DNA of 64,000 nt from the IMG/VR virus record IMGVR_UViG_3300032093_000042, positions 40,909 through 104,908 of that record; one strand, given 5' to 3'. How positions within the stretch are numbered: position 1 is the first letter of the stretch; the number at the start of each line of letters is the position of its first letter. Shown here one piece after another: positions 11,027-45,860 of this stretch. Under the pieces are notes generated by a model. The model was given only the letters and a program-made list of their open reading frames with translations. It was not told where the DNA came from and did no database searches. A program made the position numbers and the translations under genes. This stretch comes from a virus.

Positions 11027-11034
11027 TATTTATA
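11027..11034 (+). promoter_or_regulatory. Putative late promoter box TATTTATA
   Basis: Recurrent motif, 5 nt upstream of ATG 11040. Confidence 0.55.
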
Positions 11035-11783: not shown

Positions 11784-11791
11784 TATTTATA
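11784..11791 (+). promoter_or_regulatory. Putative late promoter box TATTTATA
   Basis: 4 nt upstream of ATG 11796. Confidence 0.6.
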
Positions 11792-15368: not shown

Positions 15369-16286
15369 ATGACTAATGGTTCTGTTATAGAAACGCTTTC
15401 AAAACTGTTTAAGCAAAAGCCTCATATACAAAAAGGTGGAGATGAAATATTAGTTTTTTGTCCGAATTGTAAACATCACAAAAGAAAATTAAATATCAAC
15501 ACCACAACCGGTTATTATCAGTGTTGGGTATGTGGCTTTAGTGGTAAAAGTTTTACGTCTTTGTTGAAGAAAGTAAAAGCGCCTGCTGAATTTTATAAGG
15601 TATTGTGTAAGGACAAAGTTAAGATAACTTATACAATTGAAGAAGATAAAAAAGATCTCGTTTTACCTGAAGAATTTAAACCTTTGTGTAAACCCAATAA
15701 AGACTTTGCTTATAAACACGCTTTAAACTATTGTTTACAACGTAATCTTACAATTCATGAAATTGTTAGATACAACATTGGATACTGTTCCGAAGGCAAT
15801 TTTGCTAATAGGGTAATTATTCCATCATATGACAAAGACGGAAAGTTAAACTTTTATTGTGGTAGAGATTTTTGTGGCGGCAAACTCAAATACAGACTGT
15901 GTGATGGTAGTAAAGATATAATTGGCTTTGAATTATTTACAGACTTTAATCAACCTCTCACAATCGTAGAAGGACCGTTTGATGCTTTGTCGGTTAAATA
16001 CAACGTCGTACCTTTATTTGGTAAAACTCTATCAAGAAAATTAAAAATAAAATTGATGGTGAATAAACCACCTAGAGTAAATGTTCTTTTGGATAACGAT
16101 GCTTTATCTTCAAGTATCAAAATCTGTGAGTTTTTAGTAAGTAACAATATAGAAACACACTTGGTATTGTTGGATGGCAAAGATCCAAATGAAATAGGTC
16201 ACAAAAAAACTTGGCAAACCATCAGTAACAGTGTTAGAATGGATGAAAGTCTATTGTACCGATATAAGTTAACAAATAAATTATGA
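15369..16286 (+). CDS. DNA primase (Zn finger + TOPRIM)
   Basis: CPNC..H..CWVC zinc-binding domain; RVIIP, GR, VEGPFDA, LLDND and KDPNE TOPRIM motifs. Confidence 0.88.
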   Translation: MTNGSVIETLSKLFKQKPHIQKGGDEILVFCPNCKHHKRKLNINTTTGYYQCWVCGFSGKSFTSLLKKVKAPAEFYKVLCKDKVKITYTIEEDKKDLVLPEEFKPLCKPNKDFAYKHALNYCLQRNLTIHEIVRYNIGYCSEGNFANRVIIPSYDKDGKLNFYCGRDFCGGKLKYRLCDGSKDIIGFELFTDFNQPLTIVEGPFDALSVKYNVVPLFGKTLSRKLKIKLMVNKPPRVNVLLDNDALSSSIKICEFLVSNNIETHLVLLDGKDPNEIGHKKTWQTISNSVRMDESLLYRYKLTNKL

Positions 16287-19200
16287 TTGTATTAAAAAAT
16301 ACAGATGAAAAAATCAATTGCATAGTGCACATTGCAGATATTCATATTCGTCTTACACAAAGACACGATGAATATAAGTCGGTTTTTCAAAAGTTTTATG
16401 CAGCCCTTGATAAAGCAAAAACACTAAATGCATTGTTAGTAATTGCAGGTGACATTTTTCATAATAAATCCGATCTAAGTCCGGAGTGTGTGAAAATTGG
16501 AAGTGAATTTTTAAAGAACTGTGCAGATCGTCTTCCTACAATTCTCATAGCTGGAAATCATGATGCTACATTAGCTAATAAATCTAGATTAGATTGTTTA
16601 ACTCCAATCGTAGACAGTTTAAATCATTCAAATCTTTATTACTTAAAAGCTAGTGATGTATTTAGATATGAAAACATCTTATTTAATAATTTCAGTGTAT
16701 TTGATAGTCCTGAAAAATACGTAAAATTAGACGATGTACCCGCAAAGTATCTGGTTGGTACGGATCATCATATTGCACTATTTCACGGCCCAGTAAATAA
16801 TGCAATTACTGATATTGGATATACCGTGAGCAATCGTGCAATCACAAACGAACTGTTTGATGGACATCATATTGCAATGTTGGGTGATATTCATAAACAT
16901 CAAGTTCTACAAGAATATGATGAAAAGGAAAATAAACCAGTCATTGCATATGCATCAAGCATGATTCAACAAAATCATGGTGAAGAACTTAGAGGACATG
17001 GATTTTTGATGTGGGACTTAAAACGTAAAGTATTTAAACACTACGAGTTATCTAATGACTATGGGTTTTATACAGTTGAAATTAACAAAGGCAAACTAGT
17101 AACGGATATTTCATCAATTCCAAAGAAGGTTACATTAAGAGTAATCTGTAGGGAATCTATACCCTCACAGGTAAAGGAAATCGTAAGTGAAATTAAAGAA
17201 AAATGTACTTTAGTTGAAACTACTTATGTTCGTGGCGATGAACTTTCTAATGATTTGACTTTAAAGTCTGGTCAGATATTTGACATACACAACATTTTTA
17301 ATGTAGATTATCAAAATAAACTTATTGAAGATAATCTCTTAACTAAGAACATAGATAAAGATATCATAGAGAAGGTTAAAGAGTTAAATAAATCTCTAAA
17401 CAAAGAGATATCTAAAGATAAGACACCAAAGAACATTCGATGGAAGCCAAAGATGTTTGAGTTTGATAACATGTTTAGTTATGGTGAGGGTAACATAATT
17501 GATTTCACAAAACTAAAAGGCACTATCGGATTATTTGCACCAAATGCAAGTGGTAAATCAAGCATCATGGATGCACTTGCATTTTGTGTATTTGATAAGT
17601 TTAGTAAAGGGTTCAAAGCATCACATGTTTTAAATACTCAAAAGATGAGCTTTCGTTGTAAATTTAATTTTGAGGTCAACGGTGTTGATTACTTTATTGA
17701 ACGTGATGGTAAATCCGATAAAAAAGGAAATGTTAAAGTTGAGGTTAAGTTCTATAAAATAGAAAACGGTAATGAAGTACCATTAAACGGAGAAGCTCGG
17801 CGAAGTACAAATGATATAATCAGAGATTACGTAGGCACGTATGAAGATTTTATTTTAACGGTTCTTAGTATACAAAATAGTAAGGCCGGATCTTTTATCG
17901 ATCTGGGTCAAACTGAACGTAAAGATTTGTTGTGCCAATTTATGGGATTAACTGTATTTGATCAATTGTATAATTTGGCAAATGATAAGTTTAAAGAAAC
18001 AAATACACTTTTAAAGAATGTAAGCAAAGAACAGTTACTACAAGAATTACAAAATGTATCCAGTAGTATTGATAGTAATAATACAAGTATTACACAATAC
18101 AATTTAGAAGTAAAAGACTTAGAATCTAAAAAAGATGATCATAATAACAAGTTATTAGAACTATCAAATAATGTTATTAAGACATCTTCGTTTGATATTG
18201 ACATTACTAAACTAGAATCCGAAAAGAAATCTTTAGAATCTAATATCAATAGATTTGAAAAAGATATCAATGATAAAAAGACCAAGTTTTCATCTATTGA
18301 AACTGAGTTATATAGTTTATCTTCTTCATTAAAAAGTTGTGAAAATATAGAAACCGATTATGATCAATATAAAATTTATAAAGATGAAGAATCAAAAAAA
18401 TCTTCAGAAATTGATAAGCTTAAAGTAGTAGTTAAAAATAAAATTGATAAACTTAAAAAATTAGAAGAACACAAATATGATCCTAATTGTACGTATTGTA
18501 TAAATAACGTTTTTGTGAAAGATGCTATCAAGACTAAAGAAGAACTGGAACATGATAAAAACAAAGGAAAATTATTGGTAGAAGAATATAATGTTATTAA
18601 ATCTAAGTTAGATTTTTTTGGTGACATTGAATCTCGTTACAAAGAATGTCAACGTGTAAATTCTGAAAAGGTTAGATTAGAAAAATCCAAAGAGATTTTG
18701 TCTACAGCAATACTACGTGATGAAAATTTTAAAATCAGATTACAAAACGATTTGAGTAATGTAATTCATAATATTGAAAATTTTTATAAAAATAAAGATA
18801 TTATTGAAAATAACATCAAGTTAATAACAGAAATTGATGTTGTAAAATCTTCTATCAAAGATTATGAATCTCAGATTAAATCATTGAATAATAAATTGTT
18901 TAATATTTCTACGGAAAAAGGAAGACTTGAGTTGCAGTATAAAAATACTACCGATCAACTTAGCAAAGTTAAAGAGCTTGAAGATTCGTATGAGTCTTAT
19001 AAACTATATACCAATGTTATAAGTCGGGATGGAATTCCGTATGAAATTATTACCAAGACTTTGCCTGAAATTGAAAAAGAAGTTAATAATATTCTTCAAC
19101 AGTTAGTTGAGTTTACAGTAACTATGCAAACAGATGGTAAGAATATTATGACTAATATAGTTTATGACGATAAACGTTGGCCACTTGAAATGGCAAGTGG

Positions 19201-19468
19201 CATGGAGAAGTTTGTAAGTGGATTAGCAATTAGAGTTGCTTTAATTAATATTAGTAATTTGCCTAGACCAAATATTATTTGTATAGACGAAGGATTTGGA
19301 TGTGCTGACAGTGATCATTTGGGTCAAATGGGCGTGTTGTTTAATTATTTAAAACATCAATTTGAGTTCATATGGATAATCAGCCATTTGGACCAAATGC
19401 GTGATATGGTGGATACCAGAGTGGAAATAAAAAAAGAAGGAGGATATAGTAAAGTAGTATGTATTTAA
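16283..19468 (+). CDS. Fused SbcD-SbcC (Mre11-Rad50; T4 gp47-gp46) recombination nuclease
   Basis: Metallophosphoesterase motifs ADIH, GDIFH, GNHD, FHG, GDIH; Walker A NASGKSS, coiled coil with CTYC zinc hook, signature ASGMEK, Walker B IDEGFG, H-loop IISH. Confidence 0.92.
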   Translation: MIVLKNTDEKINCIVHIADIHIRLTQRHDEYKSVFQKFYAALDKAKTLNALLVIAGDIFHNKSDLSPECVKIGSEFLKNCADRLPTILIAGNHDATLANKSRLDCLTPIVDSLNHSNLYYLKASDVFRYENILFNNFSVFDSPEKYVKLDDVPAKYLVGTDHHIALFHGPVNNAITDIGYTVSNRAITNELFDGHHIAMLGDIHKHQVLQEYDEKENKPVIAYASSMIQQNHGEELRGHGFLMWDLKRKVFKHYELSNDYGFYTVEINKGKLVTDISSIPKKVTLRVICRESIPSQVKEIVSEIKEKCTLVETTYVRGDELSNDLTLKSGQIFDIHNIFNVDYQNKLIEDNLLTKNIDKDIIEKVKELNKSLNKEISKDKTPKNIRWKPKMFEFDNMFSYGEGNIIDFTKLKGTIGLFAPNASGKSSIMDALAFCVFDKFSKGFKASHVLNTQKMSFRCKFNFEVNGVDYFIERDGKSDKKGNVKVEVKFYKIENGNEVPLNGEARRSTNDIIRDYVGTYEDFILTVLSIQNSKAGSFIDLGQTERKDLLCQFMGLTVFDQLYNLANDKFKETNTLLKNVSKEQLLQELQNVSSSIDSNNTSITQYNLEVKDLESKKDDHNNKLLELSNNVIKTSSFDIDITKLESEKKSLESNINRFEKDINDKKTKFSSIETELYSLSSSLKSCENIETDYDQYKIYKDEESKKSSEIDKLKVVVKNKIDKLKKLEEHKYDPNCTYCINNVFVKDAIKTKEELEHDKNKGKLLVEEYNVIKSKLDFFGDIESRYKECQRVNSEKVRLEKSKEILSTAILRDENFKIRLQNDLSNVIHNIENFYKNKDIIENNIKLITEIDVVKSSIKDYESQIKSLNNKLFNISTEKGRLELQYKNTTDQLSKVKELEDSYESYKLYTNVISRDGIPYEIITKTLPEIEKEVNNILQQLVEFTVTMQTDGKNIMTNIVYDDKRWPLEMASGMEKFVSGLAIRVALINISNLPRPNIICIDEGFGCADSDHLGQMGVLFNYLKHQFEFIWIISHLDQMRDMVDTRVEIKKEGGYSKVVCI

Positions 19469-19472: not shown

Positions 19473-22112
19473 ATGAAAATTTTGTTTATAACACCTCACT
19501 TATCTACCGGAGGAGCTCCTCAATACCTTTTAAAAAAAATATTAGAATTGATAAATAACCACGAAATTTATTGTATTGAATATTCAAATATTACAGGAGG
19601 AGTTTTGGTTGTTCAAAGATCACAGATAGAACAATTATTGGGTAATAAACTTATAACTCTGACGGATAATAAAACCGAATTGATCGATCATATAAAAAAT
19701 ATAAATCCGGATATAATTCATTTAGAAGAATTGCCCGAATATTTTTGTGACCGAGAAATATCCAAAAAAATATATACCAATGAACGATCATATAAGATCA
19801 TAGAAACCTCACACGACAGTAGTTTTAATATTTCACAAAAACAATTTTTTCCTGATAGTTTCGTTTTTGTTAGTGAGTATCAAAAAAACATGTTTTCACC
19901 GTTATCTATACCATCTTACGTGGTAGAGTATCCTATATCATATAAAGTAAAAACTGATCGTAATAAATCACTTTTAAATCTCGGATTGGATCCTAATAAA
20001 AAACATTTTCTGAATGTTGGGTTGTTTACTTCTAGAAAAAATCAGTCTGAAATTATTGATTATGCCAGAAAATTATTAGATAAAAACGTACAATTTCATT
20101 TTGTCGGTAACCAAGCGGATAATTTTAAAAGCTATTGGGAACCTTTAATGAAAAGTTTTCCTGCAAATTGTAAATGGTGGGGAGAAAGACGAGACGTTGA
20201 TACGTTTTACAACGCTATGGATGTTTTTATTTTTACTTCAAGAGGACACGCTAACGATAAAGAAACAAGTCCTTTAGTTTTAAGAGAAGCAATTGGTTGG
20301 AATATGCCTATATTGATGTATAATCTACCTGTATACTGTGGGATGTACAATAAATATAAAAATATTACGTGGTTAACTAATGATTTGGAAGATAATCTAT
20401 TTTTAATAAAAAATTTCATATCTGATACCGTTATCAATGAGTCTACCGACCCCAAAACAACATTAGATACATCTGTTAAAATTAATAATTTATTCAACGT
20501 TAAGTTTGAAAATTCAAATAAAATTGTTTTTGAATATTTAAGCGATAAAAATATAGAATGTCACGTTGTTATAAAAGATGTTGATTCAAATATTCCTATC
20601 TATAATTTTAAGAATATTTTTTATAAAAATTCGACATTTTGGACCATTCCTATTCCAACACACGTGTTTGATTTTGAAAAAGAAGATACGTTTCGTGGAT
20701 TTTTAATAGAAATATATGATCTAAATAAAAAAATAATAACGTCTACGGAATTGTATATTGATAAAAATAGAAAGAATGATAAATTTAAATTTAATATAAT
20801 AAATCCTTTTGATTTGTTATTTCACAACTATCTAGAAATGTTTGTGAAAAAAAATTATGATTGTTATGGTATAGATAATTTATCTACAGTTATAGATATA
20901 GGTGCAAACTCAGGATTATTTTCTAAACTGTGTTTTGATAAAAACGCAAAACAAATTTTTGCTATAGAGCCAAACATAAATTGTTTATCAAACTTACGTA
21001 GTATTTTTAACGACGAAAACAGAATTACAATTATTAATAAAGCTATCTCTGACTTTGTGGGGACGGTTGATTTGTATACAAACGATGATTGTACTACGTT
21101 AAGTTCTTTATATAAAGAACACGCTAATACTAATACTTGTACTCAAACCGTAGATTGTACTACTTTGGAAAAAATAGTTAATGATTATAACATTAAACAA
21201 ATATCTCTGCTTAAACTAGACGTAGAAGGAGCCGAGTATTCTATATTAGAAAATCTAAACAAAAATATTTATGATATCACCGATTCAATTTTATTGGAAT
21301 ATCATGACAATAAAGACAAACGTGTTAAAAAGCTAGTGGAAATATTAGAATCACATGGATTTAGTATTTTACAAGTTAGAAATCACAGTAAAAATAACGA
21401 AGATATAATTGACAATTATCTAAATATAGATAATGCAACTATATATGCAAAAAAAGAAAATAAAAAAGAGTTACTAGTTACTGATATAGAATTCCTTAAA
21501 AAAGAAATTGCTAATATAAAAGGAATTTGCCATGTAGGATCTCACGTAGGAGCTGAAGTTAAAGAATATGTTAAAAATGATGTAGATACAATGGTTTGGG
21601 TCGAAGCCAATTATTTAATATTAAATAAATTAATTAATAATACGGCTAAGTTTGGTAAAAAACAATATTGGTTACCGTTTACTCTTTATAATAAAGATGA
21701 TATAATTAAAAATTTTAATATATCAAATAACGAAGAAAGTTCTTCCGTTTTAGAGTTAGGAGAAGAACATAAAAAACAATATCCACACATTCACTATAAT
21801 AATAAAATATCGGTATTGACAAAAAGATTTGATACATATGTCAATAGTCAGACTGATTTTAATTGGAATGATATTAATATGTTAGTAGTAGATTGTCAAG
21901 GATCAGATTTACAGGTTTTAGAAGGATTCGGAGATTTACTACACTCACCTTCGTTAAAGATAATAAAAACAGAAGTAAACATAGGTAATATGTATGAAGG
22001 AAATGCTTCGGAAGAAGATATAGTTAAATATTTGTCAAACTTTAATTTTATTAAAAAGTATTGGTTTTACACATATCATCAGTGGGGCGATATTGTTTTT
22101 GTTAAAAATTAA
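19473..22112 (+). CDS. GT4-like glycosyltransferase fused to two FkbM-like methyltransferase domains
   Basis: MKILFITPHLSTGGAPQ, RKNQ, ETSPLVLREA (GT-B); IDIGANSG..EP..LKLDVEGAE; second HVGSHVG..EAN..VDCQGSDL domain. Confidence 0.85.
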   Translation: MKILFITPHLSTGGAPQYLLKKILELINNHEIYCIEYSNITGGVLVVQRSQIEQLLGNKLITLTDNKTELIDHIKNINPDIIHLEELPEYFCDREISKKIYTNERSYKIIETSHDSSFNISQKQFFPDSFVFVSEYQKNMFSPLSIPSYVVEYPISYKVKTDRNKSLLNLGLDPNKKHFLNVGLFTSRKNQSEIIDYARKLLDKNVQFHFVGNQADNFKSYWEPLMKSFPANCKWWGERRDVDTFYNAMDVFIFTSRGHANDKETSPLVLREAIGWNMPILMYNLPVYCGMYNKYKNITWLTNDLEDNLFLIKNFISDTVINESTDPKTTLDTSVKINNLFNVKFENSNKIVFEYLSDKNIECHVVIKDVDSNIPIYNFKNIFYKNSTFWTIPIPTHVFDFEKEDTFRGFLIEIYDLNKKIITSTELYIDKNRKNDKFKFNIINPFDLLFHNYLEMFVKKNYDCYGIDNLSTVIDIGANSGLFSKLCFDKNAKQIFAIEPNINCLSNLRSIFNDENRITIINKAISDFVGTVDLYTNDDCTTLSSLYKEHANTNTCTQTVDCTTLEKIVNDYNIKQISLLKLDVEGAEYSILENLNKNIYDITDSILLEYHDNKDKRVKKLVEILESHGFSILQVRNHSKNNEDIIDNYLNIDNATIYAKKENKKELLVTDIEFLKKEIANIKGICHVGSHVGAEVKEYVKNDVDTMVWVEANYLILNKLINNTAKFGKKQYWLPFTLYNKDDIIKNFNISNNEESSSVLELGEEHKKQYPHIHYNNKISVLTKRFDTYVNSQTDFNWNDINMLVVDCQGSDLQVLEGFGDLLHSPSLKIIKTEVNIGNMYEGNASEEDIVKYLSNFNFIKKYWFYTYHQWGDIVFVKN

Positions 22113-22116
22113 TCAT

Positions 22117-23832
22117 ATGAAATTAAGCGTAATAATACCGTGTTATAAATTTGAAGAGTACATAGAGGAATGTGTAAATTCTGTACTTAATCAACAAGTT
22201 GATTTTGAATATGAAATAATAGTTAGGGATGATGGTTCTAATGATAACACTTACAATATTATTCATAGTAAATTTTCTCATTTAAAAAATTTGAAATTGT
22301 TGGATAACAGTGTTAATTACGGCGTTTCTCACAATCCAATCATTCTTAATAAAGAATGTAAAGGCGAATACGTATTTTATATAGATGGAGACGATTATCT
22401 TACAGATATAAATTATTTTCAAAGAGCCGTTAGTTTTTTAGACAATAATAAACAATATGTAGTCTATTCTTCTGGATGTAAGTATAAACAAAATGATAAA
22501 ATATTTCCAGAAACACACTGGGTTTGTAGTTCTTTAAAGATTGTTAAATTGAAAGATCTGCTTATAACAAATTATATTTGTTTTGGTAGAGTGTATAGAA
22601 GATTAGAAATAAATACAATGGATAAATTTTTGAATTATCCATATCCCGATTGGATTTTTAATTTTGAACTTTTAAAAAACGGCGATGGTTATTGTGATAA
22701 TGATAAATGTGTTGGAATTTATAGGTTTAGAGAGTCGTGTGTATTTAGTACTAAAACCGATGAGGAAAAAAATGTTAATAATGAAATAATAAAAAGAGAA
22801 TTAGAACGTAGATATGTACATCATGTAAATAAAACTATTACTATAATTGATAGTTTTGTTCATAACGATGCTATCAAAAATAAACTAAGTAATACTTTAA
22901 ATTGGATGAAAGAAGATGGACACGAAGTACTCTTAGTTTCTAATACTCTTATAGACATAAACATTATAAACGGAGTTAAATATTATTTATATGATAGTAA
23001 TAATAACCTGTTTAGTGATACCTATACTAATTTACCGTATTTAGATACTTGGAAATTAATTGGTAATATGGAATGTCACGATATATCTTATAGTCTCCAA
23101 AAACACGGTTTATCTGTATTAATAAATTTATTTAATTCTTTAATGTATGCTAAAAATTTGGGCTATACACATTTTCAAAGATTTGAAGTTGACGATTTGT
23201 ACGGACCAAACTCTAGAAAATATATAAAAAATATTCCATTAGAATGTTTTTTTCAAAATAAAAAAGGATTATTTTATTACAATGATAATAATAATCCACC
23301 GGACATATCTTTTCACTATTTCTATTGTGAAATAGACTATTTTTTAAATAAAATTAAAAAAATAACATGTGAATTAGATTATAAAAATTATTTACATGAA
23401 ATTTATAATAATAATGATTTTAAAATAGTAGAAGTTTTTATATACGATTATCTTAAAAAAAATAAAGACGATGAAATTTTAAAAAAATCCGGTGGAGATC
23501 AAATGAAAAATGATTTTAAAGATACCATATGGAATACTGAAACCTCGGTATCTAATTACGACAGTAAATATAGAGGATGTACCACAAGATTGTATAAATA
23601 CAAAGATGAATATATATTACTAACATATAATTATACACCCAACGAAATTAAAAGATTTATAAAAGTAGAATTTACGGATAATACAACTACATATATTAAT
23701 CACACGGTTTCTTGTATACATGCTTGGAATTTTAATAATTTGAGCAAAAATACAAAAAAAATAGATGTTTATCAAAACGATATTTTGTTGTATACTGAAA
23801 AAACAGAAGATGTAAGTAGTTATATAAATTAA
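22117..23832 (+). CDS. GT2 glycosyltransferase with C-terminal domain of unknown function
   Basis: MKLSVIIPCY, DDGSND, IDGDDY (DxD); start moved to ATG 22117. Confidence 0.85.
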   Translation: MKLSVIIPCYKFEEYIEECVNSVLNQQVDFEYEIIVRDDGSNDNTYNIIHSKFSHLKNLKLLDNSVNYGVSHNPIILNKECKGEYVFYIDGDDYLTDINYFQRAVSFLDNNKQYVVYSSGCKYKQNDKIFPETHWVCSSLKIVKLKDLLITNYICFGRVYRRLEINTMDKFLNYPYPDWIFNFELLKNGDGYCDNDKCVGIYRFRESCVFSTKTDEEKNVNNEIIKRELERRYVHHVNKTITIIDSFVHNDAIKNKLSNTLNWMKEDGHEVLLVSNTLIDINIINGVKYYLYDSNNNLFSDTYTNLPYLDTWKLIGNMECHDISYSLQKHGLSVLINLFNSLMYAKNLGYTHFQRFEVDDLYGPNSRKYIKNIPLECFFQNKKGLFYYNDNNNPPDISFHYFYCEIDYFLNKIKKITCELDYKNYLHEIYNNNDFKIVEVFIYDYLKKNKDDEILKKSGGDQMKNDFKDTIWNTETSVSNYDSKYRGCTTRLYKYKDEYILLTYNYTPNEIKRFIKVEFTDNTTTYINHTVSCIHAWNFNNLSKNTKKIDVYQNDILLYTEKTEDVSSYIN

Positions 23833-23848
23833 AAAATTGATATTTAAA

Positions 23849-25972
23849 ATGAAAATTGTACAAGTACATCCAGGCATTTTACCAATTCCACCAAATGGTT
23901 GGGGGGCGGTTGAAAAAATTATATGGGAATATAAAAAAGCTTTTGAGAAAATGGGTCATGTATGTGACATTTTATATTTAAATGATATAGATCCATCTAA
24001 ATATGATGTAATACACGTACACGTTGCAAATTTAGCAATTATGCTTCGTAATAAAAATATTCCTTATTTTTTTACATGTCACGATCACCACGCTTTTTTG
24101 TATACAAAAGAAAGTAATGTTTTTAAAGAAAATTACGAAGCCGCTAAATATTCTTTGAAGACTTTTGTACCAGCAAAGTATTTGGTTGAATATTTTGATT
24201 TAAAAAACGTTTTATATTTAAGTCACGGTGTAAATAACGAATTTTTTAAACCGTCACAAAATAATTTTAACACACATCGTTTGTTATGTGTTGCTAATAA
24301 CGGTATAGCTCACGATAAATCGTATGATAGAAAAGGATTTTCATATGCTATACATGCAGCTGAGAAATTAAATTTACCTATTACCATAGCAGGTCCAGAA
24401 AATAATAAACATTTTTTTAAAAAATTCAATTCCGACTATGAAAAATTAACTTTAAAATTTAATTTAAACGAACAAGAATTATTAAAAGAGTACCAATCAC
24501 ATTCAATATTTTTACATTTATCAGATTTGGAAGCTGGTCATCCAAATTTAACTTTGTTGGAATCAATTGGGTGTGGATTACCAATAGTAGGAACATACGA
24601 AAAAAATAACGAATTGGAAGGTTTGTATAAAGTTGAAAGAGACGTTGACTGTATTGTTAATGGCATCAATTATGTCATTGCTAATTATGAACAATTTAAA
24701 AATAAATGTTTATTTACATCAAAAATTAAAAGTTGGGATAATATTGTAATGAATTTAATTAACATATATAACAATCAAACGATGGCTACACAATTGGTGG
24801 ACATATACAATAATACAGAAATAACTTATAAGTCTCCAATTAATCCGATTGAAATCAAAAACGAATTTGTTTTTGATTTCAATAATGGACCAAAAGTAGA
24901 AATATTAGGATCAATCACGAAAAAATATAATATAAAAATGAAAGATCTTAATTCAAGTCAAATATTATATGAAACCGATATCACCAATAATATGTGGTGT
25001 GTAGCTAGTAAAAAATATTATATTCCGTGGAGAATTGAAATAAAAGATATAGAAACAAATGAAATTTTTATATACGATCTTAATTTAGAAAATAAAAATG
25101 TTAAAATAATAAACGAGTCTCCTTCACTTGGAGATTATATATCGTGGATTTCTTATATTGATAAATTTCAGAAAACTCATAAGTGTATAGTTGATATATA
25201 CACACCAAATAAAAATATATTTAAAGACTCATATCCAAATTTAAATTTTTATAATTATAATCAAAATTTAAATAGTAATTATTTTGCTACATATAGAATA
25301 GGTTGTTTTGACCCATCCGACAGAAATTTATCACCTAAAGATTATAGAGAACAAAACTTACAAGAAATTTCGGCAAATATTCTTGGTTTTGATTACGTAG
25401 AAATAACTCCTAGTATAATTGTGAACAACACTACACGTAAACTTGATGAAAAATACGTATGTATTTCTACTGCATCAACGTCAGGTTGTAAACATTGGCA
25501 ATATGACGGTGGATGGCAAAAAACTGTAGATTATTTGAATAAAATCGGATATAAAGTAGTTGTCATTCAAAAAGAACCGTTAAATTACATGGATTTAAAA
25601 AATTTATATAATGTGGTTCATCCAAAAACAGAAAATATCAATGATGCGATAAATTGGCTTTATAACTGCGAATTTTTTATAGGATTGAGTTCGGGTATTA
25701 GTTGGCTTGCTTGGGCATTACGTAAACCTGTAATTTTAATAAGCGGATTTACTAAAACTTTCAATGAGTTTTCCACTCCTTATAGATTAATAAACGAGTC
25801 GGTTTGTAACGGTTGTTGGAACAATAGTTTGTACAAATTAGACGGAGGAGATTGGAATTGGTGTCCTGTTAATAAAAATACAAAAGATCACTTTATATGT
25901 ACTAAAACTATAACTCCCGATCAAGTAATTGATACAATCAATAAATTAACGGTTGATAAAAATTTGTTATAA
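23849..25972 (+). CDS. GT4 glycosyltransferase fused to TibC/Aah-type protein O-heptosyltransferase
   Basis: N-terminal IPPNGWGAVE..EAGHPNLTLLE (GT4); C-terminal FN.GPKVEI, SLGD.ISW, YVCIST.ST..CKHW...GW, FIGLSSGISWLAWA..PVILISGF...EF.TPYR, CNGCW..WCP..C iron-finger pattern. Confidence 0.85.
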   Translation: MKIVQVHPGILPIPPNGWGAVEKIIWEYKKAFEKMGHVCDILYLNDIDPSKYDVIHVHVANLAIMLRNKNIPYFFTCHDHHAFLYTKESNVFKENYEAAKYSLKTFVPAKYLVEYFDLKNVLYLSHGVNNEFFKPSQNNFNTHRLLCVANNGIAHDKSYDRKGFSYAIHAAEKLNLPITIAGPENNKHFFKKFNSDYEKLTLKFNLNEQELLKEYQSHSIFLHLSDLEAGHPNLTLLESIGCGLPIVGTYEKNNELEGLYKVERDVDCIVNGINYVIANYEQFKNKCLFTSKIKSWDNIVMNLINIYNNQTMATQLVDIYNNTEITYKSPINPIEIKNEFVFDFNNGPKVEILGSITKKYNIKMKDLNSSQILYETDITNNMWCVASKKYYIPWRIEIKDIETNEIFIYDLNLENKNVKIINESPSLGDYISWISYIDKFQKTHKCIVDIYTPNKNIFKDSYPNLNFYNYNQNLNSNYFATYRIGCFDPSDRNLSPKDYREQNLQEISANILGFDYVEITPSIIVNNTTRKLDEKYVCISTASTSGCKHWQYDGGWQKTVDYLNKIGYKVVVIQKEPLNYMDLKNLYNVVHPKTENINDAINWLYNCEFFIGLSSGISWLAWALRKPVILISGFTKTFNEFSTPYRLINESVCNGCWNNSLYKLDGGDWNWCPVNKNTKDHFICTKTITPDQVIDTINKLTVDKNLL

Positions 25973-26062: not shown

Positions 26063-29000
26063 ATGCCAATACAAGAAGGAGGCACATTTGCCCCAACACA
26101 AAATATAGTAAGTCCAGGCGTTTTTACCAGAGAAAACGATCTGTCGGGTTTAGCACAAGGAGTCGCTAACATCGGTGGTGCTATAGTAGCACCATTTTCT
26201 GACGGGCCCGCATTTTTCCCAGCAACTTTAACAGATGTAGCTACATTAGAAAATCGTTTCGGTGTTGCTGACGGTGTATATTACGGTCCATATACAGCAA
26301 AAGAATATCTACAACAACAAGGCATTGTCACAGTTGTTCGTGTAGGTGGTTTAACTGGTTACTGGCAAAAGAATCCATTACTTGTTTATGCACAACCAGG
26401 TACGTGGAATCGTGGATCAGATGCCGGTGCTATTACAACCGCATCATTCATGTATTTGGACGATACAAATTATACTACCAATATTAATTATCAACAAAGT
26501 AGTTCTGTATTAATATCTTCTGGAAGTAACAATACAGTTGTCGGAAAAAATAATTTTATTGGATTATCCGGTAAAATTACAGTAACCAAAGCCACTACAA
26601 GTGAAATTAGTTTATTTTTATTAAATAATATCAATGGTTTGCCATATTATTCAACACTTTCAAGTTCCTTGGCTACTTCAGCCAGTTTAGGTAAAGTATT
26701 AAAAATCACCACCACTGATTATTATAATGCATTTACCGCTTCTGTACAAAGACGCAATTTTACGGTAGGTAAAACAACTAACTATAGTTTGGCAAATTTT
26801 GATTTCCAAAAATCACGTTTTTCAGGATCTATTTCATCTAGCGCAACTACGTATTCATTGGTATTTGATACAAATACATTTGGTAATATTTCTGGTTCTC
26901 AAAATACTGCTCCTAGATCATCTACTCATCCGTATTACAGTTATTTGACTGCTTCATATACATTAATCGGAAATACCGTTGTATATGGATTAGTTTTTGC
27001 TAAATGTCCATCATCTCAAACTACTAATTTTTCAACGGCTAATTATAATTTGGCTAAGTCTACAGGTAGTTATGAATTCCGCGTTGATAATTCAAGAATA
27101 TCTCTTAGCGGTTCAATCAATGTGAAATTTGGATCCGTAGCAGCTACAAGTTTAGTAAATGCTGGATCGACTGATGGCACAGGAACATTAAGTGGCAGTG
27201 TTTTATACGCTGACCAACAATTAAATATAGGCGGAATCGGTCCTATTTTATTTACCAAGAAAGGCGCTCCATCGAATGCACAATATCCATATTATTATTT
27301 AACTTCAAGTGTACAAGCACAAGATGTAAGTGCAGAAACTGCAATTTCTACAGCGTTCGCTGAAAGTACTGCTACAAGTGTATTATTTAGTAGTTCTTAT
27401 TTTAACGATACTAGTATTGGATATAATAGAGACGTGTTAAATGTTTCTAGTGGAAACGTTCAATTACTAAGCGGTAGTGTTGCTTCTGTTCGTGGATCAG
27501 GAACATGCGTTGCTGGTTTACAGTTAAAAGGTGTAATTAGCGGTAATTATGGTAAATATACAGGAACATTTACGCCAGACGGAACAAATAGTAATGACCC
27601 ATGTAATCCAAATACTTCAGGTCGTCAAAATATGATTTTGGCAGTATTGGCTAACACTCAAAATGCTTCTGCTCAATTTAGCAGTGATTACGAGGTATAT
27701 GGATTCAATAACACTACATTATCACAACTAACTAGTTCAACATTCCCATATAAGAATTTGATCAATCCAAACGAAAACGTTTATAATTTGGCTTTAAGAT
27801 ATAACTTTACAAATCCAAATGGCAGCGTTTCTTCTGGTACATACGGATATTACGATTTCAGTCTAAATGAAAATGATAATAACTATATTAAAGACGTATT
27901 TGGAGTTGATCCAACAGTTGGTAATCCTGATAAACAAATTGCTGGTCAAAAAGTTGAAGCTGCTTACAACTACGTTCTATTTGAAGATAGTATCAAGAAG
28001 TTCGTTGCTGAAAAAACCAGTAATTTGGGTTGGAAATTGCAAGTTGGTACAAATAGTATATCCGGAAGTACAATTGTGGGTGAACCACTTAAATTTGTAG
28101 ATCAATATAGTACAAATTTAAACGCCGGTGATAGTCAATTCAGTATCACCAACGCAACTACTCCTTGGATCTATTCACAGAAGATAGCTCCATTTAAAGG
28201 TAGTGCGGCTGAATCTCCGGAACCAACAAAATTCCAATTATTCAGAGTACATACTTTGAGCGACGGTACATTAAGTAATAAAAAATTTAAGATTGAAATT
28301 AGTAATGTTAAATTAGCAGGTACCGTACCTGGCAGCGATTGGGGCAGTTTCACATTAGCAGTACGTGCTTATAGTGATACCGATAAGAAGCCTAAGTATC
28401 TTGAAATTTTCCAAAATTGTAATTTGGATCCAGAATCAGCAAACTATGTAGCACGTAAAGTAGGCGATAGATATGCTTATATTACCTACGCTGGTAAAAT
28501 CATTCAATTTGGAGATTTTGTTAACTTAAGCAGATATATTAGAATTGAAATGGCCGATACTTCATATCCGGTTAGTTCAGTACCATACGGATTTGAATCA
28601 TATAGTACTCCGATTGATAGTACAGCTAGTATTTATGTTCCTTACATTCAATATAGTAAGGCAAGTATCTATGGTTTAGCTCCAGGTAAATATCCTTCTG
28701 GTACAGTGTTTGGAGGTGTACCACAAACGGACGATGAAATTCAATCTCTATATCCTACATCATCATTTGGTGTCGGTGTAGAAAATAATACACACCAATA
28801 CTTTAATCCACTACCTTACTACGGCAATACAGATTCAAATGGTCTAAATATAGACTTTGATCTAGAAGATAAAGTTTGGGGAACAAGTACTGCTAAATAC
28901 TATGCTCAAGGTACTTCTGCAAGTACAGGTTCTTTATTAGCACCAAGTTTAAGTGGTAGTATTCCAAGTACCTATGACGCCGTTAATGAAAGTACGTATG

Positions 29001-30007
29001 TTAAACTACGTAAGTTCGTTGTTGGTTTCCAAGGTGGATTTGATGGTCAATGGCCAGCAATTCCTATCAACGTAGGTAGTGCTATTACGCCAGGTAATAC
29101 ACAAGGTCTAGACTGTACAAATATCAACAGTCCAGGTAGTATTGCTTATAAACAATGTATTGCTGCTCTAGGTAATGCCGATGAATTTGATATCAACTTG
29201 ATTGTATTACCTGGTATCTTCCGTGAGATGCACAGTTATGTTACCGAATTGGTAATTGATATGTGTGAAACTCGCCAAGATTGTTTCTATATCATGGATA
29301 ATGTGGTGTTCCCAGCAAGCAATCAAACCGTAGGATTGATTGATGCAGCAGTAAATACTGTAGCTACAGTTGATAGTAATTATGTAGGTACTTATTATCC
29401 GTGGGTTAAGATCCTAGATACCAATACCAATAAGATTATTAGTGTACCACCTTCAGTTGTATTACCAGCGGTTTATGCTGCTAATGATAATGCTGCCGCT
29501 GAATGGTACGCTCCAGCCGGTTTAAACCGTGGTGGTATTCCTCAAGCAGTACAAGTACTTGATAGAGTAACACACAGCGAACGTGATACACTCTATGAAG
29601 GTCGTGTAAATCCAATCGCAGCATTCCCTGGCCAGGGTATCTGTGTATGGGGTCAAAAGACTCTTCAAATCGCTCCAAGTGCTTTGGATCGTATCAATGT
29701 ACGTCGTTTGTTGATCAACTTGAAGAAGTTTATCGCGAGCTCAAGCAACTACTTGGTATTCGAACAAAACGTAGCTGCTACACGTAACAGATTCTTGAGT
29801 ATCGTAACTCCATATTTGGAATCTGTACAACAACGTAACGGTATTTACGCATTCCAAGTCAAGATGGATGAAACTAATAATACACCCGATTTGATAGATA
29901 GAAATATTCTATATGGTCAAATCTATATTCAACCAACTCGTACTGCTGAATTTATTATACTCGATTTCAACATACTTCCTACAGGAGGGGCTAGTTTTAA
30001 TGTTTGA
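26063..30007 (+). CDS. gp18: Tail sheath protein with large Ser/Thr-rich insertion domains
   Basis: VSPGVFTREND N-terminus; YYPWV, VPPS, WYAPAGLNRG, VNPI, WGQKTL, RINVRRL, FEQN, PTRTAEFI C-terminal sheath motifs. Confidence 0.95.
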   Translation: MPIQEGGTFAPTQNIVSPGVFTRENDLSGLAQGVANIGGAIVAPFSDGPAFFPATLTDVATLENRFGVADGVYYGPYTAKEYLQQQGIVTVVRVGGLTGYWQKNPLLVYAQPGTWNRGSDAGAITTASFMYLDDTNYTTNINYQQSSSVLISSGSNNTVVGKNNFIGLSGKITVTKATTSEISLFLLNNINGLPYYSTLSSSLATSASLGKVLKITTTDYYNAFTASVQRRNFTVGKTTNYSLANFDFQKSRFSGSISSSATTYSLVFDTNTFGNISGSQNTAPRSSTHPYYSYLTASYTLIGNTVVYGLVFAKCPSSQTTNFSTANYNLAKSTGSYEFRVDNSRISLSGSINVKFGSVAATSLVNAGSTDGTGTLSGSVLYADQQLNIGGIGPILFTKKGAPSNAQYPYYYLTSSVQAQDVSAETAISTAFAESTATSVLFSSSYFNDTSIGYNRDVLNVSSGNVQLLSGSVASVRGSGTCVAGLQLKGVISGNYGKYTGTFTPDGTNSNDPCNPNTSGRQNMILAVLANTQNASAQFSSDYEVYGFNNTTLSQLTSSTFPYKNLINPNENVYNLALRYNFTNPNGSVSSGTYGYYDFSLNENDNNYIKDVFGVDPTVGNPDKQIAGQKVEAAYNYVLFEDSIKKFVAEKTSNLGWKLQVGTNSISGSTIVGEPLKFVDQYSTNLNAGDSQFSITNATTPWIYSQKIAPFKGSAAESPEPTKFQLFRVHTLSDGTLSNKKFKIEISNVKLAGTVPGSDWGSFTLAVRAYSDTDKKPKYLEIFQNCNLDPESANYVARKVGDRYAYITYAGKIIQFGDFVNLSRYIRIEMADTSYPVSSVPYGFESYSTPIDSTASIYVPYIQYSKASIYGLAPGKYPSGTVFGGVPQTDDEIQSLYPTSSFGVGVENNTHQYFNPLPYYGNTDSNGLNIDFDLEDKVWGTSTAKYYAQGTSASTGSLLAPSLSGSIPSTYDAVNESTYVKLRKFVVGFQGGFDGQWPAIPINVGSAITPGNTQGLDCTNINSPGSIAYKQCIAALGNADEFDINLIVLPGIFREMHSYVTELVIDMCETRQDCFYIMDNVVFPASNQTVGLIDAAVNTVATVDSNYVGTYYPWVKILDTNTNKIISVPPSVVLPAVYAANDNAAAEWYAPAGLNRGGIPQAVQVLDRVTHSERDTLYEGRVNPIAAFPGQGICVWGQKTLQIAPSALDRINVRRLLINLKKFIASSSNYLVFEQNVAATRNRFLSIVTPYLESVQQRNGIYAFQVKMDETNNTPDLIDRNILYGQIYIQPTRTAEFIILDFNILPTGGASFNV

Positions 30008-30022: not shown

Positions 30023-30053
30023 AAAACCTCGCTTAGAAATAAGCGAGGTTTTT
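30023..30053 (+). terminator. Rho-independent terminator after sheath gene
   Basis: AAAACCTCGCTTA-GAAA-TAAGCGAGGTTTTT perfect hairpin with T tract. Confidence 0.9.
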
Positions 30054-32453: not shown

Positions 32454-33095
32454 ATGAAAAAAGCATCAGGTAAAAGTAATCTATCAATTGTAAAAGATTA
32501 CGTCGAAGGCAACCGTCCATTTGTACAGTTTGGTTACGATCCCAATTTAAACAATAATAAACGCAAAGAAGGTGAAGAGTGGGAAGACTCACAAGGTAGA
32601 AAGTGGATTTGGAAAAATGGTGTAAAACGTAGAGTTCCAAAGAAAGCTAAAATTATCAACGAACAACGTTGTAAAGAATGTAATATGGATGTTCGGTGGG
32701 GGAATTATTTAGATGATCGTGTATGGCCAAAAACGGGCATGTGTTACGATTGTTATATTAATTTTCAAACCAATCTGAAATTGATTGGTATGTTTGAAAT
32801 TTACAACGAACTTCAAGATTTGAAGAATGAACGTAGTATTTTAGAAGACTATAAGAAAAAATTTGAAGAAAGCAAAAAATTTTGTGAAGAAAATCAAGGT
32901 AAACCAGTTGAATTTTTAGAAGAAGATGGTTCTTTTGAACGATGGGAAGGTATTCAAGATTATAATAAAATACTAGAAGATTTAAATAAAGATTTGGAGT
33001 TACTCTATAAACGTTTAGAAGAACTAAATGCCAAAATAAAAGAGTACGAAGAACAATATGAGTCAGCAAAATCTCAGAGAAATAATAAAAAGTGA
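32454..33095 (+). CDS. Hypothetical Zn-finger/coiled-coil protein upstream of terminase
   Basis: CKEC..CYDC; overlaps the terL start; possible terminase accessory subunit (unproven). Confidence 0.55.
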   Translation: MKKASGKSNLSIVKDYVEGNRPFVQFGYDPNLNNNKRKEGEEWEDSQGRKWIWKNGVKRRVPKKAKIINEQRCKECNMDVRWGNYLDDRVWPKTGMCYDCYINFQTNLKLIGMFEIYNELQDLKNERSILEDYKKKFEESKKFCEENQGKPVEFLEEDGSFERWEGIQDYNKILEDLNKDLELLYKRLEELNAKIKEYEEQYESAKSQRNNKK

Positions 33096-33903
33096 GTATA
33101 AGAAGTGTATAGAAGATCCTATATACTTCATGAAAAAGTACGTTAAGATTCAACATCCTATAAGAGGAACAGTTGGATTTGAACTATACCCATTTCAAGA
33201 AGAGGCTTTGGAAGAGTTTGTTGATAATCAATTAAACATTGTTCTTAAAAGTCGTCAGATGGGTATTAGTACTCTTACCGCCGCATATAGTTTGTGGTTA
33301 ATGACGTTCCACAATGATAAGAATATTCTTTGTATTAGTATTACTCAAGAAACCGCAAAAGAAATCGTTACCAAAGTAAGATTTGCAAATGATAATCTTC
33401 CAAGTTGGTTGAAAGTTCCTTGTGTAGAAGACAATAGATTATCATTACGATTGAAGAATGGATCTCAAATCAAAGCGGTATCATCTGCCGGTACCGCAGG
33501 TCGTTCATCAGCTCTATCATTACTAATTATTGACGAAGCTGCATTTATCGATGGTATTGAGGAAATTTGGCTGTCTGCTCAATATACATTATCTACCGGT
33601 GGTAGAGCTATTATATTAAGTACTCCCAACGGCGTTGGTAACTTCTTCCATAAAACTTGGGTTGAAGCTGAAGAAGGTAAAAATAACTTCAAGACTATAC
33701 GATTGCCATGGCATTTACATCCAGAAAGAGACCAGACTTGGAGAGATAAACAAACAGAATTGTCGGGTGTGAAAGGAGCCGCACAAGAATGTGATTGTCT
33801 ATGGGGAGACTCTGTTGTTAGAGTTAAAGATAAATTGTCTGGAAAAGAATTTGATATTTCTTTGGAAAAGTTATATTCTGGGGATTTACAATTATATGTA
33901 TAA
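33058..33903 (+). CDS. terL: Terminase large subunit, N-terminal ATPase part fused to split-intein N fragment
   Basis: LYPFQ, Walker A KSRQMGIST, Walker B LLIIDEAAF, STPNG, W..HP.RD..W, AQECD followed by intein start CLWGDS. Confidence 0.93.
   Translation: MSQQNLREIIKSEYKKCIEDPIYFMKKYVKIQHPIRGTVGFELYPFQEEALEEFVDNQLNIVLKSRQMGISTLTAAYSLWLMTFHNDKNILCISITQETAKEIVTKVRFANDNLPSWLKVPCVEDNRLSLRLKNGSQIKAVSSAGTAGRSSALSLLIIDEAAFIDGIEEIWLSAQYTLSTGGRAIILSTPNGVGNFFHKTWVEAEEGKNNFKTIRLPWHLHPERDQTWRDKQTELSGVKGAAQECDCLWGDSVVRVKDKLSGKEFDISLEKLYSGDLQLYV
33796..33900 (+). mobile_element. Split intein N fragment (35 aa, atypically short)
   Basis: CLWGDSVVRVKDKLSGKEFDISLEKLYSGDLQLYV*; block A (CL.GD+.V) and I..LY, then stop. 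Confidence 0.88.
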
Positions 33904-33924
33904 TACATGAATGTGATTGCGACT
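33895..33924 (+). promoter_or_regulatory. Late-promoter variant TATGTATA followed by a copy of the intein-less terL target site (putative operator)
   Basis: TATGTATA at 33895-33902, 4 nt before ATG 33907; ACATGAATGTGATTGCGACT (33905-33924) vs joined exteins ACAAGAATGTGAT|TGTGATT, 17/20 identical. Confidence 0.55.
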
Positions 33925-34665
33925 CATACGCATATGCCTAAAAATTATGCATCTATAGGATGGAATAAAATCAAACAACAATTAAGTTGTGAAACAGATT
34001 TATATTCAACCGAGGAAACAAAATCCGAATTGTTAAAAAACGATTATTATAAATTTTTATTTGGTCGTGCAAAGAATAGAACTTTGATGAAACAAAATCC
34101 AAAATTATACAAATCTATTCTTTTTCATACGGAGATTCTAGAAAAATCATTTAAACAACAACAAAGTTACAAGGGATGGTATAGTTTTTCGTACCGAATT
34201 CGTTTTATTGTTGAACATAACTACGATTTAATAAAATTGAAATGTCAATGTGGAAAAAAAATAACATGGACTAAATATTGTCGTAGATGTCCTGAATATC
34301 ATAAAACCCAGACCGGTAAATCACACACTCCGGAAACAAAACAAAAAATGAGAGTATCCGCGTTAAAGTATCTATCAGAAACAAAAGGACAAATTATACC
34401 CCGTTATAACAAGAGATCAATACAACTGATAGAGGAATTTGGTAATAAACATGGATATACATTTAGACATGCTGAAAACGGAGGTGAGGTTTTTCTTAAA
34501 GAACTTGGTTATTGGTTGGATGCATATGATGAGAAAAATAACGTCGTGTTGGAAATATATGAAAAAAGACACTATAAAAATGGTAAATTGAAACAACGAG
34601 ATTTCCAACGAGAAAATGAAATTAAAAATTTATTAGGGTGTAAATTGTTCACGATTGACATATGA
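33907..34665 (+). CDS. Free-standing homing endonuclease (Zn finger, NUMOD3-like motif, Vsr/DUF559-like nuclease domain)
   Basis: CQCG..YCRRC; HTPETKQKMRVSA; YWLDAYD....VLEIYE..H..RD..RE; lies between the two intein halves. Confidence 0.78.
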   Translation: MNVIATHTHMPKNYASIGWNKIKQQLSCETDLYSTEETKSELLKNDYYKFLFGRAKNRTLMKQNPKLYKSILFHTEILEKSFKQQQSYKGWYSFSYRIRFIVEHNYDLIKLKCQCGKKITWTKYCRRCPEYHKTQTGKSHTPETKQKMRVSALKYLSETKGQIIPRYNKRSIQLIEEFGNKHGYTFRHAENGGEVFLKELGYWLDAYDEKNNVVLEIYEKRHYKNGKLKQRDFQRENEIKNLLGCKLFTIDI

Positions 34666-35003
34666 ATCATTCGAAAATTAAACTAAATACTAGATTTCAG
34701 ATTTTGACTCCGACTGGATATCAGGATTTTTTTGGAATCAGAAAAGTAAAAAAAGATTGTTATTATACCATTTTATTGAGTAACGGAAAAATAATAAAAT
34801 GTTCGGATAATCATTCATTTATTTACAACAACGTCGAGGTTCGATCTCATGATATCAGTATTGGATCAAAAATATCAGGAGTTGATGGTATAGAGGTGGT
34901 TGTTGTATCAATAGAAAAATTTGAAAACACGATTGATTTGTATGATATAGTAAATGTATCAGGTGGTAATATTTTTAATGTAGATGGAATTGTTTCACAT
35001 AAT
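34662..35003 (+). mobile_element. Split intein C fragment (114 aa)
   Basis: QILTPTGY..F.GI.KV, IKCSDNHSF (block B), LYDIVNV (block F), NVDGIVSHN/C (block G with +1 Cys). Confidence 0.9.
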
Positions 35004-37822: not shown

Positions 37823-37878
37823 ATACAAATACTATATATTTAAATAGTTCTTATATATTTATAAATAATATTAATATT

Positions 37879-40361: not shown

Positions 40362-40369
40362 TATTTATA
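40362..40369 (+). promoter_or_regulatory. Putative late promoter box TATTTATA
   Basis: 4 nt upstream of ATG 40374. Confidence 0.6.
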
Positions 40370-45852: not shown

Positions 45853-45860
45853 TATTTATA
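45853..45860 (+). promoter_or_regulatory. Putative late promoter box TATTTATA
   Basis: 4 nt upstream of ATG 45865. Confidence 0.6.

Follow-up and report, generated by a model that had tools for sequence, protein, structure and literature searches.

The stretch of DNA analysed here, referred to as the window, comprises 64,000 nucleotides and forms the final 64 kb of a 104.9-kb viral contig from IMG/VR (IMGVR_UViG_3300032093_000042). Three adjacent genes on its plus strand (19473–25972), designated A, B and C, encode a series of glycosyltransferase (GT) and methyltransferase (MT) domains together with a C-terminal domain of the TibC/Aah family of bacterial autotransporter heptosyltransferases (BAHT). 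An earlier note, made from the sequence alone, had read these genes as a protein O-glycosylation cassette and proposed a glycan-coated virion. The contig is only 36% complete by CheckV estimate, so the phage is probably jumbo-sized. It carries a T4-type morphogenesis set, consisting of gp20 portal, gp21-type prohead protease, gp23 capsid, gp15-like neck, terminase and sheath genes, and the closest cultured relatives are Microcystis phage Mel-JY01 and Flavobacterium phage immuto (~48% capsid identity). The GC content of the window is 25–31% outside the repeat genes. The cassette sits between a primase gene plus a fused Mre11-Rad50 gene on one side and the tail sheath gene on the other, with gaps of 4 nt and 16 nt between its members.

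Gene A (19473–22112, +) encodes a protein of 879 residues with a GT4 domain (Glycos_transf_1, PF00534) at residues 170–298 (E 4e-12, 46.3 bits against a gathering threshold of 26.4) and two FkbM methyltransferase domains. The latter appear as two stretches, at residues ~472–631 and towards the C-terminus, matched by PF05050 (E 2e-24, 87.1 bits) and by TIGR01444 (134.8 bits against a cut-off of 37.7).

Gene B (22117–23832, +) encodes ~571 residues from its ATG, beginning with a GT2 domain (Glycos_transf_2, PF00535) at residues 12–170 (E 3e-24, 86.2 bits against 23.3). The listed open reading frames (ORFs) of genes B and C are 579 residues (from 22093) and 711 residues long, but alignment to the closest relative indicates that the likely starts are the ATGs at 22117 and 23849 and not TTGs. 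Residues 240–579 of gene B (window 22810–23829), overlooked by Pfam, contain a divergent domain with a GT-A-like fold, the second GT domain of the protein, and end in a beta-sandwich. The AlphaFold2 (AF2) model of this region has a predicted local distance difference test score (pLDDT) of 87, and Foldseek matches it to GT-A enzymes with a probability of 1.0, E ~1e-4 and TMt, a template modelling (TM) score, of 0.4–0.56. These include GT6 enzymes, SpsA and a PBCV-1 capsid-glycan transferase (2P6W/2P72/2P73). Look-alikes in the Atlas are viral only and often fused to Aah/TibC-type proteins, while homologues lie just 5' of GT4-TibC in many loci. The domain represents a virus-only family of ~330 residues without a Pfam model, in which Y61, D62, H99, D128 and E208 are invariant among 13 sequences. 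The same family is found in the related loci L004 (8005–9006), L005 (7994–8968) and L022 (7982–8950), and its members stand alone or are fused to GT2, GT4, GT25-like or TibC-type domains.

Gene C opens with a GT4-type domain (23849–24835, +) which passes the PF13524 cut-off at 26.5 bits against 25 and is borderline for PF00534 (26.1 against 26.4). This domain is 26–29% identical to annotated cyanophage glycosyltransferases, and the GT4-TibC fusion is shared by L006, L009, L042 and Mel-JY01. Altogether the cassette holds five glycosyltransferase-type and two methyltransferase domains. The two GT4, one GT2 and two FkbM domains that the earlier note had assigned to the three genes were all recovered with Pfam and NCBIfam, as was their placement directly upstream of the sheath gene (26063–30007, +), which starts 90 nt beyond the end of gene C.

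The TibC/Aah-like domain

The C-terminal domain of gene C (24836–25972, +) is a true member of the BAHT family by curated hidden Markov model (HMM), by sequence and by fold. It scores 341.9 bits against the NCBI equivalog model TIGR04414 (cut-off 200), covering model positions 9–374 of 374, and 33.7 bits against PF21129 (TibC_1st). Residues 334–704 of gene C match residues 13–386 of TibC with a phmmer E-value of 1.7e-64, and the two are ~31% identical over the whole enzyme. The AF2 model (pLDDT 88.8, predicted TM score (pTM) 0.89) displays the TibC fold, with an N-terminal beta-barrel, a GT-B catalytic domain and an iron-finger insertion. In Foldseek it aligns to 4RB4/4RAP with TM 0.85–0.88 and E 2e-35, followed by WaaF/WaaC at ~0.5. 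The proposed TibC/Aah-type domain with a Cys iron finger is thus borne out, and the HMM and structure comparison with TibC that had been suggested finds both the TibC fold and the catalytic Asp (D433) present. The statement that no autotransporter is encoded here also holds, as neither an AIDA repeat (PF16168) nor an autotransporter barrel (PF03797) was found in the 105-kb contig.

The key ADP-heptose contacts of TibC are T226, K230, R286, P300 (S294) and W305 (PMC4358343). In gene C, T548 aligns to T226, K552 to K230 and W623 to W305, and the position of P300 is Ser, as in Aah, an enzyme that accepts both heptose epimers. R286, a weak adenine contact in TibC, aligns to Ala beside a gap. D433 corresponds to the catalytic base D110 of TibC, which is Ala in the 4RB4 mutant chain, and is conserved in both clades of the family tree described below. 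The iron-finger motif CNGCW...WCP...C is present, with C657, C660, C676 and C688 aligning to the iron-finger Cys residues of TibC; these are at least 85% conserved in both clades (176 sequences) and are predicted to bind iron. D433, K552, W623 and the four Cys are conserved across the 176 aligned family members.

Other residues separate the clades. W387 and W673, the second of which lies in the iron finger, are invariant in the phage-type clade only, and several beta-barrel residues are conserved in the adhesin-type clade only. The iron finger of TibC helps to grip the acceptor, and these clade-specific residues would be compatible with a changed acceptor.

Family tree, gene neighbours and collagen-like proteins

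A pattern scan identified at least 590 confirmed TibC-like relatives in IMG/VR and 529 in GTDB (one genome per species). Only 4 of 50,697 deposited phage records carry the domain, with Mel-JY01 being the sole cultured phage among them. This scarcity may explain why no report of phage BAHT enzymes, including for Mel-JY01, was found in the literature.

The family tree divides into two clades. Clade I consists of 70 cellular enzymes, including all those linked to AIDA repeats and none with a collagen-like neighbour. Clade II contains all 96 viral enzymes and ten cellular ones which have collagen or GSS neighbours. The split has a FastTree support of 100 and is recovered by IQ-TREE under a mixture model with 72 rows dereplicated at 70% identity, with a Shimodaira–Hasegawa-like approximate likelihood ratio test (SH-aLRT) support of 100. 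Two of the ten cellular enzymes of clade II are on short contigs of metagenome-assembled genomes and fall inside viral subclades; these are probably phage DNA.

The neighbourhood of the enzyme gene, reaching at most 10 kb to either side, was compared among 95 viral and 80 cellular loci. In 29 of the 80 cellular loci the enzyme is neighboured by a giant AIDA-repeat protein with RTX repeats, an acceptor of the classical type, with HlyD and ABC exporter genes near some. AIDA-type neighbours are seen in clade I only (29 of its 70 rows). A different arrangement is found in eight Gammaproteobacteria (Arenicellales, Acidiferrobacterales and others; L098, L105, L108, L119, L120, L126, L153 and L155, at ~7.8–12.6 kb in most loci), where the clade II enzyme gene is flanked by one to three small lipoproteins and accompanied by a DUF6502 gene. 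The lipoproteins consist of a signal peptide, a lipobox Cys, a (GSS/GTS)n array and a poly-Asp tail. This DUF6502-TibC-like-GSS locus is a candidate bacterial system for the glycosylation of mucin-like lipoproteins.

For the viral loci, an ORF was classed as collagen-like if no fewer than 45 of its residues fall in runs of six or more G-X-Y. Such an ORF lies near the enzyme gene in 28 of the 95 loci, always within 7 kb and never at 7–10 kb, with ~100 kb of sequence available per 1-kb distance bin; the S/T type accounts for 22 of these 28. Among random viral loci drawn with an arbitrary 14-mer, which are shorter and unmatched for phage type, 2 of 80 have a collagen-like ORF (Fisher p 1e-6, ~7-fold excess per kb). 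The linkage persists after dereplication at 70% identity, in 18 of 46 viral rows. Co-occurrence with Ser-rich repeats, which the earlier note had suggested as a check, is supported by this comparison. On these comparative sequence grounds the enzyme is linked to G-S/T-S/T repeats beyond the window, in many phage lineages and several arrangements, and independently in Gammaproteobacteria.

The common order in myoviruses is a giant collagen-like gene, small genes, a GT/MT protein of 800–900 residues, a GT of ~314 residues, the TibC-like gene (either alone or as GT4-TibC), sheath and tube. In other lineages the fibre gene begins 13–73 nt after the enzyme gene, is convergent on the other strand or lies 5 kb away, and in the window it is unlinked. 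As these arrangements vary between lineages, inherited synteny alone is unlikely to account for the linkage. The ends of several linked collagen-like ORFs resemble, in a by-eye comparison, the C-terminal chaperone of tail fibres, and the linked ORFs are for this reason probably virion fibres. The group-2 relatives encode a protein of 2000–2400 residues 5' of the enzyme genes; the L008 member of this group of proteins matches Peptidase_S74 and is not collagen-like.

The GT, MT and TibC domains recur as fusions among relatives, which argues for one shared pathway. In close relatives the two ends of the cassette, GT4-FkbM and GT4-TibC, are kept, with an extra FkbM domain fused in two; the GT4-FkbM part is conserved in L003–L005 and in group-2 phages. 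The middle enzymes are swapped for rhamnosyl-O-methyltransferase-like, GT34-like or unknown proteins, even where the Rad50 and sheath genes are still 73–92% identical to those of the window. This swapping resembles the behaviour of surface-glycan loci.

The window itself encodes two collagen-like proteins within its structural module, both proposed here as acceptors. The first (53258–55540, +; PF01391, E 6e-42) has 760 residues with two G-S/T-S/T triplet arrays, of which 387 residues are in G-X-Y runs and 44% are Ser or Thr, and is encoded directly downstream of the gp15-like neck gene (51784–53253). The second (60978–63998, +; PF01391, E 2e-94) exceeds 1007 residues, is open at the contig end and contains ~730 residues of G-S/T-S/T triplets. 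Together they hold ~1100 residues in G-X-Y runs, in agreement with the earlier count of more than 1000 residues of such repeats. The longer contigs of the closest relatives (G001, 91282–91733; G004, 46550–49302) end in G-S/T-S/T repeat DNA and two short relative contigs stop before the repeat region, while a control with the reversed pattern gave no matches. The repeat arrays probably break assemblies, and the fibre genes of many carrier contigs would be hidden as a result.

Two further large S/T-rich proteins without a Pfam match are encoded between the collagen-like genes, one of 948 residues (55599–58445) and one of 535 residues (58964–60571). The former is built of repeated units of ~45–60 residues with the pattern ...T-D-x-T-K-x-W-x-x-N-x-W-x-x-Y-x-V-x-I-x-S-G-T-G-x-G-Q-x-R-x-I... 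Both are probably fibre or baseplate components.

Proposed pathway and alternative readings

The linkage to collagen genes and the clade split of the tree point to the phage's own fibres as the likely acceptor. It is reasonably likely, judging from sequence comparison, that the three genes form a phage-encoded cytoplasmic protein O-glycosylation pathway, whose likeliest acceptors would be the phage's own proline-free collagen-like (G-S/T-S/T) fibres. In the proposed pathway, the TibC-like domain would move a first sugar, probably heptose from host ADP-heptose, onto the Ser/Thr hydroxyls of the repeats. The two GT4, the GT2 and the GT-A-like domains would lengthen it into a short oligosaccharide, and the two FkbM domains would O-methylate the sugars, probably at the ends. 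Once glycosylated, the fibres would be built into the virion close to its neck and tail. Possible roles of the glycan are to stabilise the proline-free triple helix, to shield it from proteolysis or to tune adsorption. Which acceptor and which sugar are used, in what order the steps run and how the virion is affected are all inferred. The glycan-coated virion of the earlier note is better stated as glycosylated collagen-like fibres, possibly also the sheath; the identity of the enzyme and its link to the repeats stand, while the proposed [ST]-[GAS]-S sequon does not.

The first sugar is probably heptose, as weakly suggested by the conserved contacts and by a heptose-7-phosphate kinase-like gene beside the enzyme in three distant relatives. 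In L008 (11113–11862), L013 and L018 a PfkB-type kinase gene of ~250 codons directly follows the TibC-like gene; among known kinases it most resembles heptose-7-phosphate kinase (rfaE domain I), with a score of 92 bits where the cut-off is 345. Three of the five large relatives (G005, G008 and G009) likewise have a short rfaE_dom_I-like gene that stays under the cut-off. The large group-2 protein encoded after the enzyme was considered as HldE domain II and rejected, as its adenylyltransferase domain best matches nicotinamide mononucleotide adenylyltransferase. Genes of the ADP-heptose pathway were likewise rejected as evidence for heptose, with none in the contig, the kinase under its cut-off and gmhA absent from the large relatives. 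In a host without ADP-heptose the donor would have to differ.

Several observations weigh against fibre glycosylation primed with heptose. TibC recognises a folded beta-helix strand-loop-strand motif, and a clade II enzyme would have to accept G-X-Y repeats. The adenine contact R286 of TibC aligns to Ala in gene C, beside a six-residue gap. No PfkB or cytidylyltransferase-family gene of the ADP-heptose pathway was found in the 105-kb contig, and gmhA was found in none of the five large relatives. The collagen-like genes of the window lie 27–35 kb downstream of the cassette, none of the 16 rows of the window's own subclade has a collagen-like gene within 10 kb, and the random loci used as a control differ in length and phage type. 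The cassette also stands behind replication and recombination genes without a late-type signal of its own.

The many [ST]-[GAS]-S motifs of the earlier note are partly upheld. The tripeptide is enriched 4.0-fold overall against shuffles (z 14.8), more strongly than its permuted forms, with z of 6–8 in the sheath and three baseplate-region proteins. The copies in the window's structural proteins often have hydrophobic flanks, as in a strand-loop-strand. The link to the enzyme fails, as immuto, which has no TibC-like gene, shows the enrichment in its sheath and in one further protein, and Mel-JY01, a carrier, lacks it in most of its large structural proteins. The motif was therefore rejected as discriminating evidence for a sequon.

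A rather unlikely alternative to the glycosylation of the phage's own fibres is that the cassette alters the host surface during infection. It would act on lipopolysaccharide (LPS) or its O-chain, on capsule or on GSS-type lipoproteins, blocking superinfection or changing receptor display. O-chain modification is the published view of the GT and rfaE genes in the host-recognition cluster of pelagimyophages (PMC7029224). Polysaccharide loci often contain GT2, GT4 and FkbM domains, and the best NCBIfam matches of gene B are exopolysaccharide and teichuronic-acid glycosyltransferases, all far under cut-off. The cassette adjoins early-type genes, and clade II enzymes adjoin surface lipoproteins in bacteria, so that such a host protein could be the target. 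However, the priming enzyme belongs to a protein-modifying family and not to WaaC/WaaF (TM 0.87 against ~0.5), and GT and MT domains are fused to it. Across phages the enzyme lies between fibre and sheath genes, and the phage itself encodes more than 1000 residues of the kind of repeat found beside the enzyme in bacteria. No membrane-embedded polymerase, flippase or ligase was seen among the Pfam and NCBIfam profile matches of the three cassette genes.

It also appears improbable that virion proteins are glycosylated mainly on the giant sheath or other outer proteins, at short S/T-rich loops, in place of collagen-like fibres. The sheath gene lies directly 3' of the TibC-like gene here and in 40 of the 95 viral loci, although this adjacency may merely mirror the conserved order of the structural module. 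A strong intrinsic terminator-like hairpin with a 13-bp stem and T-run (30023–30052, +) closes the cassette-sheath block, and no other strong terminator was found on the plus strand between 14.4 and 30.4 kb; the sheath gene is probably co-transcribed with the cassette. The sheath protein has an extension of 1000 residues, with 23–35% S+T at residues 100–600, and the tripeptide enrichment described above extends to it. This enrichment is shared with the immuto sheath and is absent from most large Mel-JY01 structural proteins, however, and the cellular clade II loci have GSS repeats but no sheath. As a separate observation, the sheath, at 1314 residues, is ~2x the size of T4 gp18, and its canonical domains (PF04984, PF17482) are confined to the last 280 residues, at 1032–1304. 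Among related loci, 20 have sheaths of 920–1340 residues and 20 have normal sheaths of 512–869 residues.

That the enzymes put sugars on hydroxymethylated bases of the phage DNA to evade host restriction is very hard to sustain: DNA glycosylation is a common role of phage glycosyltransferases in the account of Pyle et al. 2024 cited in PMC12619734, and the cassette adjoins primase and Mre11-Rad50 genes, but the 105-kb contig yielded no gene of the thymidylate-synthase or hydroxymethylase families, and in the locus comparisons the enzyme goes with fibre, sheath and lipoprotein genes rather than with nucleotide-modification genes. The domain content of the cassette also argues against DNA as the acceptor. 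To our knowledge, the TibC family acts solely as protein O-glycosyltransferases, and we know of no DNA precedent for a methylated oligosaccharide built by five GT domains.

The genes around the cassette show further features. The motif TATAAATA was tried as a T4 late promoter to time the cassette and is over-represented, with 35 copies on both strands against 19.5 expected. The element that recurs ahead of structural genes is its complement, ATATTTATA, located 3–12 nt 5' of start codons. As (A)TATTTATA on the coding strand it precedes by 3–12 nt the ATG of many structural genes having an intergenic spacer, with copies at 11027–11034, 11784–11791, 37856–37867, 40362–40369, 45853–45860, 46789–46796, 49029–49036, 51189–51204, 58474–58481 and 60966–60973. 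It may be a late promoter with near-leaderless transcripts, or a translation signal. The cassette genes have no clean copy, only a single imperfect one before 19473, and the motif was rejected as timing evidence for the cassette.

Upstream of the cassette, an Mre11-like phosphoesterase and a Rad50-like ATPase are fused into one protein of 1061 residues (16283–19468). The same fusion is seen in L005, while in the closest relative, L003 (1271–4623), the two parts are separate ORFs of 236 and 853 residues. The large terminase is in pieces (33058–35855), consisting of a 281-residue N-terminal ATPase (Terminase_6N), a 252-residue ORF and a 397-residue ORF with a weak intein-splicing match; the relatives have a single terminase of 531 residues.

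Relation to known glycosylation systems

The closest known systems are TibC-TibA and Aah-AIDA-I of E. coli (TIGR04414; 4RAP/4RB4; PMC4358343), in which heptose is transferred from ADP-heptose to an adhesin (PMC4358343). The gene C domain belongs to the same family as these enzymes, with ~31% identity and the same fold. It keeps the catalytic Asp and the contacts to the beta-phosphate and heptose O4, and has Ser for P300 as in Aah. Both are cytoplasmic enzymes whose genes accompany that of a large, repetitive fibre protein of the surface. Unlike TibC and Aah, gene C falls in a separate phage-dominated clade (SH-aLRT 100) without an AIDA repeat or autotransporter, and the linked repeats are collagen-like G-X-Y triplets in place of 19-residue beta-helix repeats. 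It differs from TibC in having Ala aligned to R286 and in carrying W387 and W673, invariant in its own clade only. It is also fused to a GT4 domain and set amid further GT and MT domains, so its product would be an oligosaccharide and not a single heptose.

Resemblances extend to systems without a BAHT-type enzyme. In chlorovirus PBCV-1 (A064R) and in the fibrils of giant viruses (reviewed in PMC9614988), multidomain virus proteins join GT and sugar-methyltransferase domains and build methyl-capped glycans on virion proteins independently of host machinery. The joining of these domains in virus-encoded proteins is shared with the cassette, but the hosts are eukaryotic and the glycans are either N-linked to the capsid or borne by fibrils. 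The likeness of the PBCV-1 enzyme to gene B is structural only, a shared GT-A fold at low TM. BclA of the Bacillus anthracis exosporium (mentioned in PMC10050317) is a proline-poor or Thr-rich G-X-Y filament bearing Thr O-linked oligosaccharides capped by a methylated sugar. It is a functional analogy only, being a spore protein with rhamnose-based glycans that end in anthrose and are made by different transferases.

Among phages, virion glycosylation is described for mycobacteriophages Che8, Corndog and Myrna (Freeman et al. 2023, cited in PMC12619734). As summarised there, phage glycosyltransferases adjoin structural genes, as they do here, and the phage's own virion proteins are O-glycosylated in the host cytoplasm. 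Those systems, in siphoviruses and myoviruses of Actinobacteria, are reported to use other GT families and to modify the C-terminal tails of capsid and tail-tube subunits. The cassette differs in its BAHT-type priming enzyme and inferred collagen-like acceptors, and is known here from genomic placement. Pelagimyophages and cyanomyophages carry clusters of GT and rfaE-like genes among their tail-fibre genes, termed LPS-related auxiliary metabolic genes (PMC7029224). These were read as modifying the host O-chain, with mainly GT8 enzymes, and that paper makes no mention of TibC/Aah-type enzymes or of a link to collagen-like fibres.

In a wider and more tentative reading, the phage-dominated sister clade of the adhesin heptosyltransferases may mark a widespread system for the O-glycosylation of virion fibres, found in uncultured aquatic myoviruses by the hundred. 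Glycans that start with heptose, end in methyl caps and vary between strains would sit on the proline-free G-S/T-S/T fibres, stabilising the helix and setting adsorption or host range. In that case, much of what is called LPS-related auxiliary metabolism in aquatic T4-like phages would be virion glycosylation, and the same pair of enzyme and repeat might make mucin-like lipoproteins in some Gammaproteobacteria.

If these proposals are true, protein glycosylation of phage particles, so far shown in mycobacteriophages only, would be widespread among T4-like and jumbo phages of the environment and built on an enzyme family known from pathogen adhesins only. The BAHT family would gain a second class of acceptor, collagen-like Ser/Thr triplets, and there would be a route to a collagen helix that needs neither proline nor hydroxyproline. 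Many phage genes now annotated as LPS genes would have to be interpreted anew. With a hypervariable coat of glycans, the fibres could influence which hosts are infected, how stable the particles are and how they stick in water.

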